NCBI GenBank assembly: GCA_902619045.1
Contig: CACNCX010000001.1
Location: 592-64,591, forward strand
Origin: an uncultured Alphaproteobacteria bacterium
GTDB taxonomy: Bacteria > Pseudomonadota > Alphaproteobacteria > HIMB59 > GCA-002718135
Direction of reading: 5' to 3'
DNA: 64,000 bases
Numbering within the stretch: the stretch's first letter is position 1; each line of letters opens with the position of its first letter. Shown in pieces: positions 353-5,148 of this stretch. Position numbers and translations under genes: made by a program. Under the pieces are notes generated by a model. It made no database searches and was not told the origin of the DNA. It saw only the letters and a list, made by a program, of their open reading frames with translations.

Positions 353-1639
353 TTAATCTCTAATTGAATAAGCTACCACTCCAACCTCGGCTTTATCAGT
401 ACCAAGTTTTTCAGCTTCTTCACTTATTCTTAATCCCATAATATTTTTAATTAAATATATTACAATATATGAGAAAACAAAAACAAAGATACACACTGAT
501 GCGACACCCAGTAATTGAATTGAGTATGATGCATCAGGATTAGTTAGAGGGACAACTAATGTTCCCCAAATACCAGCAAACATATGTACGGGTATTGCAC
601 CAACAACATCATCTAGTTTTAATGAATTTAAAAAGTTAGTTCCATAATACATTATTACTCCACCAACTGCCCCAATTCCGATTGCAAGCAATGGACTAGG
701 CATTAATGGCTCAGCTGTTATTGAAACTAAACCTGCAAGTGCTCCATTAAGCATCATGACAATATCAGTTTTTCCACCTATTAATCTTGTTATTGCTGCG
801 CCAGCCATACATCCACCACACGCTGCAAGTTGAGTGTTCATGAAGATTTTTGACATTGCTGTTGCATCTTCATAAGAACCTAATGCAAGTTGCGATCCGC
901 CATTAAAACCGTACCAACCCATCCATAAAATAAATGTTCCTAATGTAACTAAAGGAATTGATGATGGAGCAAATGGAGCCATATTAGCTGGTTCTCCACT
1001 CGCACTGAATCTTCCAAGTCTTGGACCTAAAAGAATTACTCCTGCTAAAGCTGCAGAACCACCGCAAGCGTGGACTAATGTTGAGCCAGCAAAATCTGCA
1101 AAACCTAGGGCGTCTAACCATCCTCCACCCCATTCCCAACCCATTTGAATTGGATAAATTACTCCTCCAAGAACTGCAGCAAAAGTGAAGAAAGGCCAAA
1201 TTTTTATTCGCTCTGCAACAGCACCAGATACAATTGAAACAGTTGCACAAACAAATAAAGCTTGAAAAAACCAATCTGACGCATCTGAATAACCTGTTTC
1301 CATAGATGAATTATCAGTCCATATAGATGGTGTACCAACATAACCTCCTTCAGGAACAGAATATCCAAGATTATAGCCAATTAAATAGAAAACAATTGAA
1401 ACAATTGCGAACTTTCCAATATTTTTAGCAGCAATAGTTGATACACTTCTCGTTGTAACGAGACCTGATTCTAAAAATAGAAATCCTGCAGCCATCCACA
1501 TGACTAAAAATCCACATACTAAAAAAGAAAATGTATTAAATATATATGCTACTTCAGCGTCAACCTCTGCTCTCACAGATGAACTTAGCAATAAAATAAA
1601 AGAGAAAATTGCAAAAAGACTAAAAAATTTTTTATACAT
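353..1639 (-). CDS. amt: Ammonium transporter (Amt/AmtB family), paralog 1, 428 aa
   Basis: The translation has Amt-family blocks (AAGFLFLESG, FAGSTLVH, GFNGGS, VGAIPVH). N-terminal signal-like segment ...SSSVRA/EV. SD uauauGGAGuu upstream of the ATG. Confidence 0.95.
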   Translation of the reverse strand: MYKKFFSLFAIFSFILLLSSSVRAEVDAEVAYIFNTFSFLVCGFLVMWMAAGFLFLESGLVTTRSVSTIAAKNIGKFAIVSIVFYLIGYNLGYSVPEGGYVGTPSIWTDNSSMETGYSDASDWFFQALFVCATVSIVSGAVAERIKIWPFFTFAAVLGGVIYPIQMGWEWGGGWLDALGFADFAGSTLVHACGGSAALAGVILLGPRLGRFSASGEPANMAPFAPSSIPLVTLGTFILWMGWYGFNGGSQLALGSYEDATAMSKIFMNTQLAACGGCMAGAAITRLIGGKTDIVMMLNGALAGLVSITAEPLMPSPLLAIGIGAVGGVIMYYGTNFLNSLKLDDVVGAIPVHMFAGIWGTLVVPLTNPDASYSIQLLGVASVCIFVFVFSYIVIYLIKNIMGLRISEEAEKLGTDKAEVGVVAYSIRD

Positions 1640-1667
1640 TATTTAACTCCATATAAAATTATAAACA

Positions 1668-1688
1668 CATAACTAACCTTTAGTTATG
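1668..1688 (-). promoter_or_regulatory. Leader hairpin between the riboswitch aptamers and the amt1 SD (expression-platform candidate)
   Basis: Minus strand CAUAACUAA-AGG-UUAGUUAUG followed by UGUUUAUAAUUUUAUAUGGAG. The amt2 leader has a hairpin at the same position with a different sequence. Confidence 0.5.
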
Positions 1689-1730
1689 CATTACTTCATG
1701 CGTAGCTATGGAAATTAATTAATAAGATCC

Positions 1731-1781
1731 GCGTTCCTTCGGGTATACCTACTTCCGATTTGCAAACTGCAAATTGAACGA
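1731..1781 (-). promoter_or_regulatory. Glutamine riboswitch (glnA RNA motif)-like aptamer, gene-proximal copy, amt1 leader
   Basis: Minus strand UCGUUCAAUUUGCAGUUUGCAAAUCGGAAGUAGGUAUACCCGAAGGAACGC. It has a CGUUC...GGAACG closing helix, an internal hairpin, CGGAAGUAG, a short hairpin and GAAGGAACGC, as I recall the glnA RNA consensus. Confidence 0.75.
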
Positions 1782-1797
1782 TTTAATAACTTTGCAT

Positions 1798-1848
1798 GCG
1801 TTCCTTCGACTTTCGTCTACTTCCGTCACCCTATAAGATGATGAACGT
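1798..1848 (-). promoter_or_regulatory. Glutamine riboswitch (glnA RNA motif)-like aptamer, distal copy, amt1 leader
   Basis: Minus strand ACGUUCAUCAUCUUAUAGGGUGACGGAAGUAGACGAAAGUCGAAGGAACGC. Same signature, with a GAC-GAAA-GUC tetraloop hairpin. Separated from the proximal aptamer by a 16-nt linker. Confidence 0.75.
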
Positions 1849-1916
1849 GATATGACTTATAACAACTATTTAGAAAGTATCAATAAATAGTATTTAATTT
1901 AATTACTAAAATATAA

Positions 1917-2291
1917 TTAGTTTTCTAAACTCATTTTATTAAAAAAAGTTCCTTCTTTTTTTAACCAACCATTAATCGTATCAAGAAAATTGTTGCTTAA
2001 ATAGTAGTTTTTGATTCGTTTGTCAGATTTACTTTGCTCTTTAACAAAAATATTTTTTTCTAAAGCTTCGTTTAAAATTGATTGAATAGATGATCTGGAG
2101 CCAATTGATTTAGGTATATTTGCACATATTGCTTCAAATGAAATTCCACTTAGCATATTATTTTCATAAATTTCTAGAGAGATCACGTGGTGTAAAATTG
2201 ACTTGAATAAAAATTTTGAGACATAATCTTCTGAAAAGAAGCTTGAATATATATTTCTTTTCTTTTCTTTAATAATTTCTGTTTCTGTCAT
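1917..2291 (-). CDS. Hypothetical 124-aa protein, possible winged-helix DNA-binding protein
   Basis: ORF track. GGAG 8 nt upstream of the ATG. The segment ISFEAICANIPKSIGSRSSIQSILNEALEKNIFVKEQSKSDKRIKNYYLS resembles helix-turn-helix plus a wing (D-K-R-x-K-x-Y-x-L-S, MarR/PadR-like). Judged by eye only. Confidence 0.6.
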   Translation of the reverse strand: MTETEIIKEKKRNIYSSFFSEDYVSKFLFKSILHHVISLEIYENNMLSGISFEAICANIPKSIGSRSSIQSILNEALEKNIFVKEQSKSDKRIKNYYLSNNFLDTINGWLKKEGTFFNKMSLEN

Positions 2292-2321
2292 TTGAGTCTC
2301 CGACTAATATTTAGCAAATTC

Positions 2322-2341
2322 GGGAGAGCAAATGCTCTCCC
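2322..2341 (-). terminator. GC-rich hairpin downstream of amt2 (terminator-like)
   Basis: GGGAGAGC-AUUU-GCUCUCCC on the minus strand, followed by GAAUUUGCUAAAUAUU (weak U-tract). It lies 50 nt after the amt2 stop. Confidence 0.5.
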
Positions 2342-2391
2342 ATTTATTAGTGACCAACTATAAGGAGTTGATTTGCTAATCACTAAATTCA

Positions 2392-3678
2392 TTAGTCTCT
2401 GATGCTGTAAGCCATAACACCTACTTCAGATTTATCAGTACCAAGTTTTTCAGCTTCTTCACTAATTCTAATACCAAAGAGCATTTTCATGATGTACCAA
2501 ATGATAAATGATACAACAAAAACGAAAACATTAATTGCAATTATACCGTAAAGTTGTGCGCCAAAACTTGCTGCACTATTAGAAATTGGAACAACTAATG
2601 TTCCAAAAATTCCAGCAAAACCATGTACAGGAATTGCTCCAACAACATCATCAATTTTAAATGAAATTAAAAGTCTTGTTCCATAGAACACAATTAATCC
2701 ACCAATTGCACCAATGATTACTGCTAGGAATGGCGAAGGTGCTAATGGTTCTGCAGTAATTGCTACTAAACCACCTAGTGCACCATTAAGCATCATTACA
2801 ACATCTGTTTTACCAGTTACTAACCTTGAAATAACTGCACAAGCCATTACACCTGCACCAGCTGCCAAGTTAGTATTTATATATATAGTCGCTACTGCTG
2901 TAACGTCATCGAATGTACCCATTGCTAATTGTGATCCACCGTTAAATCCGAACCATCCGAGCCATAGAATAAATACACCAAGAGTTGCAAGAGGTATTGA
3001 AGAATTTGCAAAAGGCTCCATTGGAGCTGCTTCACCGCTATCAGTGAAACGTCCTAATCTTGGACCTAGTAAAATCGCACCAGCTAGTGCTGCTGCTGCC
3101 CCTGCACTGTGAACTAGAGTTGATCCAGCAAAATCTGAGAAACCTGCTTCTGCTAAGTATCCTCCACCCCACTGCCAACCCATTTCGATTGGATAGATGA
3201 AACCAGTTAATAAAGCACAAAAAATAAAGAATGGCCAAATTTTGATTCTTTCAGCTAGTGTTCCAGATACAATTGAGCAAGTTGTTGCACAAAATACCAT
3301 CTGAAAGAACCAGTCAGAACCATCTGAATAACCTGTATCAAGAGCGCTACCATCACTCCAAGGAAGTGGAGATCCAATAAAACCGCCTGCAGGAATGCCA
3401 TATGCCATGTTATATCCAACTAACCAGAACATTAAACCAGCTATTGAATATAAGCCTATATTTTTTGCAGCAATTGTTGCTACACTTTTGGACGTAACAA
3501 GTCCTGATTCAAGCATTGCAAATCCTGCTGCCATCCACATGACTAAGAACCCAGATACAAGAAATAGGAATGTATTTAAAATGTATTGCACTTCACCGTC
3601 TACTTCGGCTCTTGCATATGAACTGAAGAGCATAAAGACAGCAAGAATGCTAATGAAATATATAGATTTTTTTAACAT
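2392..3678 (-). CDS. amt: Ammonium transporter (Amt/AmtB family), paralog 2, 428 aa
   Basis: About two-thirds identical to paralog 1 by eye, with the same length and C-terminus (RISEEAEKLGTDK.EVGV.AYSIRD). Start moved from 3708 to the ATG at 3678 (MLKKSIYF...). That start has a GGAGG SD at 3683-3687 and aligns with the paralog 1 N-terminus. Confidence 0.95.
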   Translation of the reverse strand: MLKKSIYFISILAVFMLFSSYARAEVDGEVQYILNTFLFLVSGFLVMWMAAGFAMLESGLVTSKSVATIAAKNIGLYSIAGLMFWLVGYNMAYGIPAGGFIGSPLPWSDGSALDTGYSDGSDWFFQMVFCATTCSIVSGTLAERIKIWPFFIFCALLTGFIYPIEMGWQWGGGYLAEAGFSDFAGSTLVHSAGAAAALAGAILLGPRLGRFTDSGEAAPMEPFANSSIPLATLGVFILWLGWFGFNGGSQLAMGTFDDVTAVATIYINTNLAAGAGVMACAVISRLVTGKTDVVMMLNGALGGLVAITAEPLAPSPFLAVIIGAIGGLIVFYGTRLLISFKIDDVVGAIPVHGFAGIFGTLVVPISNSAASFGAQLYGIIAINVFVFVVSFIIWYIMKMLFGIRISEEAEKLGTDKSEVGVMAYSIRD

Positions 3679-3705
3679 TAATCCTCCATTATAAATTTCA
3701 CTGTA

Positions 3706-3726
3706 CATGACTCACATTGAGTCATG
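3706..3726 (-). promoter_or_regulatory. Leader hairpin between the riboswitch aptamers and the amt2 SD (expression-platform candidate)
   Basis: Minus strand CAUGACUCA-AUG-UGAGUCAUG, followed by UACAGUGAAAUUUAUAAUGGAGG. Same position as the amt1-leader hairpin, but the sequence is unrelated. Confidence 0.5.
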
Positions 3727-3770
3727 CGTTACTTTTCATGCTTAGCTATGGAAATTAAATAATAAGATCC

Positions 3771-3822
3771 GCGTTCCTTCGGGTTCAACCTACTTCCGAT
3801 TTGCCATAGGCAAATTGAACGA
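3771..3822 (-). promoter_or_regulatory. Glutamine riboswitch (glnA RNA motif)-like aptamer, proximal copy, amt2 leader
   Basis: Minus strand UCGUUCAAUUUGCCUAUGGCAAAUCGGAAGUAGGUUGAACCCGAAGGAACGC. The internal helix differs from the amt1 copy by a compensatory A-U to C-G change. Confidence 0.75.
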
Positions 3823-3838
3823 TATTATAACTTTGCAT

Positions 3839-3889
3839 GCGTTCCTTCGACTTTCGTCTACTTCCGTCACCCTGTAAGGTGATGAACGT
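3839..3889 (-). promoter_or_regulatory. Glutamine riboswitch (glnA RNA motif)-like aptamer, distal copy, amt2 leader
   Basis: Minus strand ACGUUCAUCACCUUACAGGGUGACGGAAGUAGACGAAAGUCGAAGGAACGC. It differs from the amt1 distal copy at 2 positions: one converts a U.G pair to C-G, the other is in a loop. Confidence 0.75.
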
Positions 3890-3965
3890 GATTACTGATT
3901 TAGTTTAATATTAATTTTTAGTAAGATTATAATCGTTAACATTAATATGCAAAAAATGCATATAG

Positions 3966-3995
3966 TAATATTTCCCTGTTTTATGGGAAATATTA
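3966..3995 (-). terminator. 11-bp hairpin immediately after the upstream oxidoreductase gene
   Basis: taatatttccc (3966-3976) / gggaaatatta (3985-3995), 8-nt loop, starting 1 nt after the stop at 3997. On the minus strand it is followed by CUAUAUGCAUUUUUUGC, a displaced U-run. Confidence 0.5.
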
Positions 3996-3996
3996 G

Positions 3997-5148
3997 CTAT
4001 TTTATTGTTGATAAATCAGTCCAAGCAGAGTTATTGTTACTAGAATTTACACTTGCATTAATAAATTTCATAATATGCAAACCATCATCAATATTTGGGA
4101 GTAACTTTAATAAATATTCCTTATTTTCCTTATTTTGTATAACATCGGCAGCGTCTGAATAAATCTGTGCAAATGCTTCAAGATACCCTTCTGGATGACC
4201 AGCAGGGATTCGCACGTTAGCCTCAGTTCCTTCAACTTTGATAGAACCGCCCCTTGTTATTATTTGGCTAGGTTCTCCTACTTTACTAAATGTTGCATAA
4301 TTTGGATTTTCTTGACTCCATTTTAAAGCTCCCTTTTCTCCATAAATAGCTACAGTAAAATTATTTTCTTCTCCTGTCGCAACTTGAGAGATAGATAATG
4401 AGCCCTTAGCTCCGTTGTTTAATCTTATCATTATTGACGCATCGTCATCTAATTTTCTTCCTTCAACAAATGTTGTAAGATCTGCACTAACTGATTGTAA
4501 TTTTAATTGAGTTATAAATTCCAATAAATGCATAGTGTGACTACCAATATCACCTACACCTCCTGCAGCTCCACTTCTTAAGGGATCTGTTCTCCATTCT
4601 GCTTGTTTATTTGAACCAGAATCCTCTTCTTTTGATCCAAGCCATCCTTGCAAATAAGATCCTTTAACAATTCTTATTTTTCCAAGTGCTCCATTTTCAA
4701 TAAGTGATCTCATACCTCTAACAACTGGATATCCAGAATAATTATGAGTTAAGAAAAAATGAGCATCAGATTTAGAAACTGCATCAACTAATTTATGAGC
4801 ATCTTCCATTGAAGAGGTCATAGGTTTGTCACAAATGACATGAATATTTTTATTTAGAAATTCAATTGCTGGTGCAGCATGCATATGATTTGGTGTAACA
4901 ATAGATACTACATCAATACCATCATCTCTTTTAGCTTCTTCCTCAGCCATCGTTTTAAAATCAGGATAACTTCTTGAAGGATCGAGACCAATTTCTTCAG
5001 CAGATTTTGCTGCTTTTTCTGGAGTTGAAGATAAACAACCAGCAACAAATTCATATTTATCATCCATTCTTGCACATAGACGATGAACAGCTCCAATAAA
5101 AGCTCCTTGACCACCACCTATCATTCCTAATTTTAATCTTTTTGCCAT
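3997..5148 (-). CDS. Gfo/Idh/MocA-family NAD(P)-dependent oxidoreductase
   Basis: N-terminal Rossmann motif LGMIGGGQGAFIG, plus typical family length and C-terminal alpha/beta domain. Confidence 0.85.
   Translation of the reverse strand: MAKRLKLGMIGGGQGAFIGAVHRLCARMDDKYEFVAGCLSSTPEKAAKSAEEIGLDPSRSYPDFKTMAEEEAKRDDGIDVVSIVTPNHMHAAPAIEFLNKNIHVICDKPMTSSMEDAHKLVDAVSKSDAHFFLTHNYSGYPVVRGMRSLIENGALGKIRIVKGSYLQGWLGSKEEDSGSNKQAEWRTDPLRSGAAGGVGDIGSHTMHLLEFITQLKLQSVSADLTTFVEGRKLDDDASIMIRLNNGAKGSLSISQVATGEENNFTVAIYGEKGALKWSQENPNYATFSKVGEPSQIITRGGSIKVEGTEANVRIPAGHPEGYLEAFAQIYSDAADVIQNKENKEYLLKLLPNIDDGLHIMKFINASVNSSNNNSAWTDLSTIK

Follow-up and report, generated by a model that had tools for sequence, protein, structure and literature searches.

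The RNAs reported in 2010 as glnA RNAs lie upstream of genes for ammonium transporters, glutamine synthetase, glutamate synthase and PII, and they sometimes occur in tandem (PMC2864571). A survey of tandem riboswitches in 2022 counted 157 glutamine doublets and 4 triplets (PMC9481103). Marine metagenome examples have been found upstream of glnA, and both their hosts and the sign of their regulation were called unknown in PMC6212724. According to PMC11477058 and PMC6212724, glutamine binds at the base of P1, the junction nucleotide G23 is inserted and pairs with C60 after P1, and binding melts a short helix attached to P1. The riboswitch of Synechocystis gifB (Klahn et al. 2018), which is validated as an ON switch, acts on translation, as is proposed here for the leaders described below.

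Tandem arrangements of amino-acid aptamers are also known from the glycine riboswitch, in which two homologous aptamers with a short linker serve a single platform and a linker helix between the domains has been proposed. The glycine aptamers touch each other and can bind cooperatively, whereas tandem glutamine aptamers are reported to bind without cooperativity in vitro (PMC5066625, citing Ames and Breaker). The amt and amtB leaders of Pelagibacter (Meyer 2009; Smith 2013) resemble the present ones in that they are structured 5' UTRs of SAR11 ammonium transporter genes with post-transcriptional control. They differ in that they were described as distinct motifs of unknown ligand, and the HTCC1062 leaders are set apart from ours by that description only. 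Pelagibacter has been reported to lack PII and NtrBC (PMC3870248). Our literature search found no paper that ties a glutamine riboswitch to SAR11 amt genes.

Aptamers and gene context of the amt2 and amt1 leaders

The window, which is the whole 64-kb stretch of DNA that was analysed, has a GC content of 31%, and its host is placed as a low-GC, SAR11-like marine alphaproteobacterium. The whole window was scanned with Rfam cmscan at gathering thresholds (35 bits for RF01739). Exactly four matches were obtained, all of them minus-strand hits to RF01739 that span the complete model (positions 1-53 of 53). As shown in Table 1, the matches form two tandem pairs, and the amt1 pair lies on the same strand 2 kb downstream of the amt2 pair. 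A permissive rescan with E values up to 1 revealed no further Rfam family over positions 1550-4050. The RF01739 core motifs CGUUCA, CGGAAGUAG and CGAAGGAACGC are identical in both window leaders and invariant over the 53 leaders aligned below. The core motif CGAAGGAACG and the C after P1, which hold the partners of the G23-C60 linchpin with the roles given in PMC11477058, are likewise invariant in the 53 leaders.

At the aptamer level no difference from RF01739 type 1 (Weinberg 2010; Ames and Breaker 2011) was found. The consensus, the three-stem junction and the E-loop-type core agree, and so do the location in 5' UTRs of nitrogen genes (ammonium transporters, glutamine synthetase), the frequent tandems and the marine metagenome origin. 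The host differs, as it is a SAR11-like alphaproteobacterium and not a cyanobacterium. Positions 3771-3889 almost certainly form the glutamine-sensing portion of a tandem glutamine-I riboswitch located in the amt2 5' UTR, with L-glutamine as the ligand assigned by family. The aptamer pair as such is not new: the class, its tandem form and its link to amt have been known since 2010-2011.

Table 1. Positions of features of the amt2 and amt1 leaders in the window
Feature	Position	Strand	Remarks
amt1 platform, like that of amt2	Pa 1710-1730; Pb 1667-1689; SD 1646-1652; start codon 1637-1639	-	Pa proposed
amt1 leader, paralogous tandem pair	1728..1849	-	distal 1795-1849 (60.2 bits); proximal 1728-1782 (55.4 bits)
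amt2 CDS	2392..3678	-	428 aa, ammonium transporter; Pfam PF00909 (Ammonium_transp), E 2.2e-97
SD region AUGGAGG (3683-3689) and amt2 start codon AUG (3676-3678)	3676..3689	-	conserved in orthologous leaders
Hairpin Pb (GCAUGACUCAAUGUGAGUCAUGU)	3705..3727	-	between block and SD; 8 of 9 pairs with compensatory changes among 53 leaders
Block UUUCCAUAGCUAAGCAUG	3737..3754	-	near-invariant in 53 leaders; contains anti-SD UUUCCAU (3748-3754)
Proposed P0 3' strands	UAGCU 3744-3748; GCAUG 3737-3741	-	within block
Proposed hairpin Pa, GGAUCUUA-loop-UAAUUUCC	3750..3770	-	RNAalifold; invariant flanks, variable loop of 5-8 nt
amt2 proximal (3') glutamine aptamer	3768..3823	-	RF01739, 56.9 bits; covariation
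Helices of amt2 proximal aptamer	P1 3817-3821 with 3772-3776; P2 3799-3815; P3 3781-3790; linchpin C 3771	-	
Linker CAUGCAAAGUUAUAAUAU, 18 nt	3822..3839	-	near-invariant; RNAalifold pairs it with 3737-3748
Proposed P0 5' strands	CAUGC 3835-3839; AGUUA 3828-3832	-	within linker
amt2 distal (5') glutamine aptamer	3836..3890	-	RF01739, 61.8 bits, E 3e-11; helices covary
Helices of amt2 distal aptamer	P1 3884-3888 with 3840-3844; P2 3867-3882; P3 3849-3858; linchpin C 3839	-	
Promoter-like site: -35 TTTGCA, 16 nt spacer, -10 TATAAT	3926..3961	-	consensus scan; such sites no commoner than chance

The initial annotation had described the amt2 leader as a repeat of the two-aptamer architecture of amt1, and the four RF01739 matches bear this out, with the span 3771-3889 corresponding to the amt2 pair. 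The open reading frames downstream of both leaders encode ammonium transporters (PF00909, E about 1e-96), so that the label "amt2 leader" was correct. The distal aptamers, which had been said to differ at 2 of 51 positions, indeed show two differences between the paralogues: column 13 in P2 is C in amt2, forming C-G, and U in amt1, forming U.G, while column 30, in the P2 loop, is C in the former and U in the latter. At the top of the proximal P2 the paired change that had been pointed out is present (AUUUGCC...GGCAAAU versus AUUUGCA...UGCAAAU, that is, C-G versus A-U). The proximal loops also differ as claimed, both in P2 and around the P3 loop, where there is also a 1-nt indel, and all signature nucleotides are identical between the two leaders. 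The downstream hairpin Pb adds two compensatory pairs between amt2 and amt1 (G-C to A-U and C-G to A-U) that had not been mentioned. Taken alone, two paralogues with one double change and one change of U.G to C-G are anecdotal evidence for selection on the fold.

The start codon of amt2 is the ATG at 3678, located 5 bases past GGAGGA. The mechanical open reading frame opens at 3708; the 428-aa product corresponds to metagenome gene calls, and the SD and AUG are kept in orthologous leaders. The in-frame AUG at 3708 was considered as the true start or as a conserved upstream ORF and was rejected, because frame and start vary among leaders and the gene calls give 428 aa. Terminator-like, GC-containing palindromic hairpins were found at 3966-3995 and 2322-2341, one following the upstream GFO/IDH/MocA gene and the other between amt2 and a 124-aa ORF, which suggests that amt2 and its leader form their own transcription unit.

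A palindrome of 15 bp, ATGCA-N5-TGCAT, occurs once in the 64-kb window, at 3947-3961, where it overlaps the predicted -35 element, some 55 nt 5' of the distal aptamer of amt2. It is absent from the amt1 leader. Of 72 metagenome tandem leaders among the matches listed, 34 have the palindrome at this same distance. It is also present upstream of amt in many Pelagibacteraceae genomes without the riboswitch, and lies about 170 nt upstream of amt in loci L001, L002, L005, L006, L008, L013, L018-L021, L023 and L024. It is probably the operator of some nitrogen regulator.

The 124-aa ORF (1917-2291, minus strand) is situated between amt2 and the amt1 leader and has no Pfam match of its own. Its family is small (122 representative clusters), with weak profile matches to the SarA/Rot and MarR winged-helix regulators, and its best match in the PDB is 1p4x (E 0.0017). 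The position of this ORF is kept in metagenome contigs and in assembly GCA_902590695.1 (syntenic contig CACIXR010000001.1). On one metagenome contig (L102:1797-2024) a remnant of 9 codons comes after the tandem leader, and a homologue of the 124-aa ORF adjoins it. In this contig amt2 appears to have been deleted, which would have placed the putative regulator under the riboswitch.

Covariation in related and metagenomic leaders

Relatives were sought in contigs representing one genome per species, and aptamers were looked for at 36 loci surrounding the closest Amt relatives. The closest relatives are encoded in Pelagibacteraceae single-cell genomes, with 63-77% identity. One locus of the same species (L015, SAG AG-891-K21) carries an amt1 that is 98.8% identical, and its leader is cut by the contig end. 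Glutamine aptamers were absent from 35 of the 36 related loci scanned, and L012 was the sole carrier. When metagenomes were scanned for the core of the proximal aptamer together with GGATC, at least 120 stretches matched, and 80 loci were taken. The 95 pattern matches considered here come from these 80 metagenome loci, the window, L012 and six contigs encoding an identical Amt2.

Among the matches listed, 88 of the 95 are complete tandems with an inter-aptamer linker of 16-19 nt, five are cut by contig ends, and two are singlets that belong to another kind of leader. The genes following the metagenome leaders in this set are mostly Amt paralogues, and glutamine synthetase and a circularly permuted ATP-grasp protein were also found. 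The riboswitch 5' UTRs accordingly precede genes of nitrogen metabolism, namely Amt (PF00909), GlnA (PF00120/PF03951) and CP_ATPgrasp_2.

For the analysis of covariation, 53 distinct, non-redundant tandem leaders, both orthologous and paralogous, were aligned (alignment A1). Standard pairs made up 96.8% of the cells, and changes on both sides were seen in 25 of the 53 pairs. None of 500 shuffles did as well, and pairing fell to 26-41% when the partners were shifted by 1-3 columns. Compensatory changes were present in all six P2 pairs of the distal aptamer and in five of six of the proximal one, and the P3 stems of both aptamers covary. P1 is invariant in the alignment and hence uninformative on covariation. 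These data support a three-stem junction (P1, P2, P3) that is kept by compensatory substitutions. The initial annotation had ascribed the differences between the two paralogues to selection on the RNA fold; with compensatory changes in both aptamers across 53 leaders this interpretation is supported, and the contrary outcome that it had named, helix positions varying without compensation in a wider alignment, was not seen in these leaders.

Conserved region between the aptamers and the start codon

The region 3' of the aptamers is covered by no Rfam family, and its conservation in the 53 leaders equals that of the aptamer cores. Its consensus reads GCGGAUCUUA, 5-8 variable nt, UAAUUUCCAUAGCUA[A/C]GCAUGA, a hairpin, UUAUGGAGG and AUG. 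RNAalifold, when applied to the alignment unprompted, predicted three helices in this region: P0, Pa and Pb. P0 is a long-range pairing that encloses the proximal aptamer and consists of CAUGC:GCAUG (P0a) and AGUUA:UAGCU (P0b). Pa consists of GGA:UCC and UUA:UAA; it begins one base after the proximal P1, and its 3' strand carries the UUUCC of the anti-SD.

Standard pairs amounted to 100% in P0a, 97% in P0b and 99.7% in Pa. The columns of P0 and Pa are nearly invariant, and the two helices show no real covariation in the alignment. The few changes consistent with pairing were U.G to U-A in seven sequences, A-U to G.U in eight and a single A-U to U-A, and the outer pair of P0b was broken in 7 of the 53 leaders. 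GCAUGC is a palindrome, and we estimate the probability that two 5-bp helices between conserved segments arose by chance at about 5%. We infer P0 and Pa from their conservation, complementarity, position and energy.

The sequence UUUCCAU in the block is complementary to AUGGAGG of the SD region. Over 11 positions, AAUUUCCAUAG with UUAUGGAGGUU, the complementarity is retained in 66-100% of the amt and glnA leaders, and it includes bases flanking GGAG that are not needed for ribosome binding. Pairing of the anti-SD with the SD (antiSD:SD) excludes Pa because bases are shared, and it excludes P0 because the two helices would cross one another. The leader can thus adopt either of two states, each of which rules out the other.

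The platform is energetically plausible. With the aptamers enforced, P0 plus Pa was better than antiSD:SD by about 8 kcal/mol in 53 of 53 leaders, in nearest-neighbour folding that leaves aptamer tertiary structure out of account, and in unconstrained folding the two states lay within about 1 kcal/mol. The effect of glutamine was modelled by making the 2-3 nt after each P1 unavailable. In this model the mean probability of antiSD:SD rose from 0.24 to about 0.75, and the accessibility of the SD fell from 0.36 to 0.11. For the two window leaders the modelled SD accessibility fell from 0.68 to 0.05 in amt1 and from 0.61 to 0.2-0.3 in amt2. In the glnA leaders antiSD:SD was already the predicted minimum before any blocking, and the L012 family has kept P0 and Pa together with weak anti-SD complementarity (3 bp).

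Three further readings of this region were considered and rejected. Pb is not an intrinsic terminator, as the sense strand has no U-tract after it and the one terminator-like call there, at 3706-3726, falls on the antisense strand. An extension of P1 through flanking AU/AU bases showed no consistent pairing or covariation in the distal aptamers, in which the 5' flank changes between CA and AU while the tail stays the same. The Pb loop, frequently AUGG or AAGG, could pair with the anti-SD over at most 3-6 bp, and this pairing is not conserved.

Several leaders depart from the common arrangement. Those upstream of CP_ATPgrasp_2 (L087, L109, L121, L153) contain the same tandem aptamers and block, with no AUGGAGG after them. 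They carry an upstream ORF of 20-25 codons that begins on the 3' side of Pb. The Pb loop offers an SD-like GAAAGG, and the upstream ORF ends in a stop codon that shares bases with the main start codon (TGATG or TAATG). This layout suggests that the ATP-grasp leaders may be controlled via translational coupling. On another contig (L103:393-620) an amt2-type leader passes directly from the 3' side of Pb into internal amt coding sequence, with no SD and no N-terminus, through either a natural deletion or a chimeric assembly. Within the window, the platform segment AAGCAUGAAAAGUAAC (3724-3741) directly repeats the distal tail plus linker ACGCAUGCAAAGUUAU (3824-3841) on the minus strand, with identity at 12 of 16 positions. 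The repeat hints that the platform may have arisen from a duplicated aptamer tail, and P0a could be a by-product of such a duplication or of a repeated protein-binding motif.

Proposed glutamine response and alternative readings

Among the matches listed, 88 leaders have a single conserved platform 3' of the second aptamer, with a single SD and a single anti-SD block, and two homologous aptamers thus feed one expression platform. We propose that this platform works as follows. When glutamine is absent, CAUGC and AGUUA of the linker would pair with UAGCU and GCAUG past the proximal aptamer to form P0, and the bases immediately after the proximal P1 would form Pa. Together P0 and Pa would keep UUUCCAU off the ribosome-binding site, and amt2 would be translated. 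The helices attached to P1 would here be P0 for the distal aptamer and Pa for the proximal one; P0a opens with the pair made by C 3839, after the distal P1, and Pa sets in one base past C 3771. Glutamine would open P0 and Pa, UUUCCAU(AG) would pair with (UU)AUGGAGG, and translation would stop. As antiSD:SD can form only when neither P0 nor Pa is present, repression would require glutamine in both aptamers. Such AND-type control would give a steeper response without cooperative binding and fits the reported absence of binding cooperativity. The steepness would come from a platform that needs both helices melted, in contrast to the cooperative binding possible in the glycine riboswitch.

The predicted sign is OFF because the helix attached to P1 holds the anti-SD and not the SD, which inverts the logic of gifB and its viral counterparts. 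In gifB a short helix at or next to the linchpin C after P1 is likewise proposed to melt upon glutamine binding. The gifB helix contains the ribosome-binding site, so that melting turns expression ON, whereas P0 and Pa contain the anti-SD; in addition, two aptamers share one platform here. A gifB-type pairing to the ribosome-binding site was not found in the window leaders, in which the bases from the linchpin C onwards pair with GCAUG (P0a) or UCC (Pa). The regulated genes are amt, glnA and the ATP-grasp gene, and for amt and glnA one would expect glutamine to repress.

Viral contigs provide a contrast. In IMG/VR contigs (L207-L286), 78 tandem glutamine riboswitches with linkers of 6-10 nt were found, and a hairpin CACCU...AGGAGGGUG is attached straight to the proximal P1, as in an ON switch of the gifB type. 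Through this hairpin the nucleotides that follow the proximal P1 are paired with the SD of a small ORF whose product starts with MTKYQ or MTMWTR. Use of the glutamine riboswitch by phages is far commoner than the two cyanophage examples of 2017 (PMC5473149). The SAR11-type proximal aptamer had no match in the viral contigs and is therefore regarded as cellular.

Taken as a whole, a tandem riboswitch with a shared translational OFF platform is the statement to which we give slightly better than even odds of being right. For the OFF mechanism itself, with formation of P0 and Pa, their melting by glutamine and the OFF sign, we put the chances at about even. The more specific proposal, namely that in SAR11-like alphaproteobacteria the two aptamers form a two-input AND gate in which each would melt its own helix and only the opening of both would mask amt, glnA and the ATP-grasp gene, is put forward tentatively and may well prove wrong.

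The same aptamers and platform could instead form an ON switch. Glutamine-stabilised P1 helices would then stack on P0 and Pa, the anti-SD would be sequestered and translation would be on, while without glutamine P1, P0 and Pa would fall apart and the anti-SD would block the SD. The geometry allows this: P0a continues the distal P1 strand without a gap, Pa follows one base after the proximal P1, and the nested helices could stack coaxially. P0 and Pa are also compatible with both P1 helices, and the unconstrained states are only about 1 kcal/mol apart. Moreover, the one glutamine-I riboswitch that has been validated switches expression ON (PMC6212724), and the Amt paralogue SAR11_1310 of Pelagibacter HTCC1062 is made only under N-replete conditions with unchanged mRNA (PMC3870248). 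However, the same leader precedes glnA, a gene that glutamine would hardly be expected to activate. The first pair of P0a moreover involves the linchpin C 3839 itself, and a helix attached to P1 melts on binding according to published structural work. In the model, aptamers that are merely folded already leave the SD open, so that there is little left for glutamine to add. We consider an ON switch unlikely.

A different reading accepts the aptamers and dispenses with P0 and Pa. The linker and the block would be copies of a repeated motif, GCAUGMAAAGUWAY, bound by a protein or an RNA, or else control would be exerted through Rho, RNase or attenuation. The 12 of 16 identities between linker and platform segment favour a repeated motif, as do the lack of covariation in P0 and Pa and a conservation that exceeds what pairing alone requires. 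Against it, RNAalifold gave P0 and Pa unprompted, and both helices are part of the minimum-energy fold predicted for the amt1 leader. The L012 family has a block of altered sequence and length, and P0b and Pa can still form in it. The block is furthermore complementary to the flanks of the SD at 66-100% over 11 positions, and Pb, with no U-tract after it, offers no intrinsic terminator for attenuation. This reading also seems improbable to us.

Finally, two complete and independent riboswitches in series, the pseudo-cooperative class in which the 2022 survey placed the 157 glutamine doublets (PMC9481103), are very improbable here, as the conserved spacer of 16-19 nt between the aptamers of the tandem leaders listed contains neither a terminator nor an anti-RBS hairpin, and the aptamers are too close for a platform each (PMC5066625).

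The translational OFF platform shared by two aptamers is a concrete, testable model of a conserved expression platform for tandem glutamine riboswitches, and this is what is new here. The leaders, coming from SAR11-like alphaproteobacteria, speak to the gaps in host and sign stated for the marine examples (PMC6212724). If the model is true, the AND gate would supply the missing expression platform and a rationale for the tandem arrangement of glutamine riboswitches. Some of the most abundant marine heterotrophs would then sense glutamine directly by RNA and set ammonium uptake and assimilation by it, and they would have a direct glutamine sensor for nitrogen control where their relative Pelagibacter lacks PII and NtrBC (PMC3870248).
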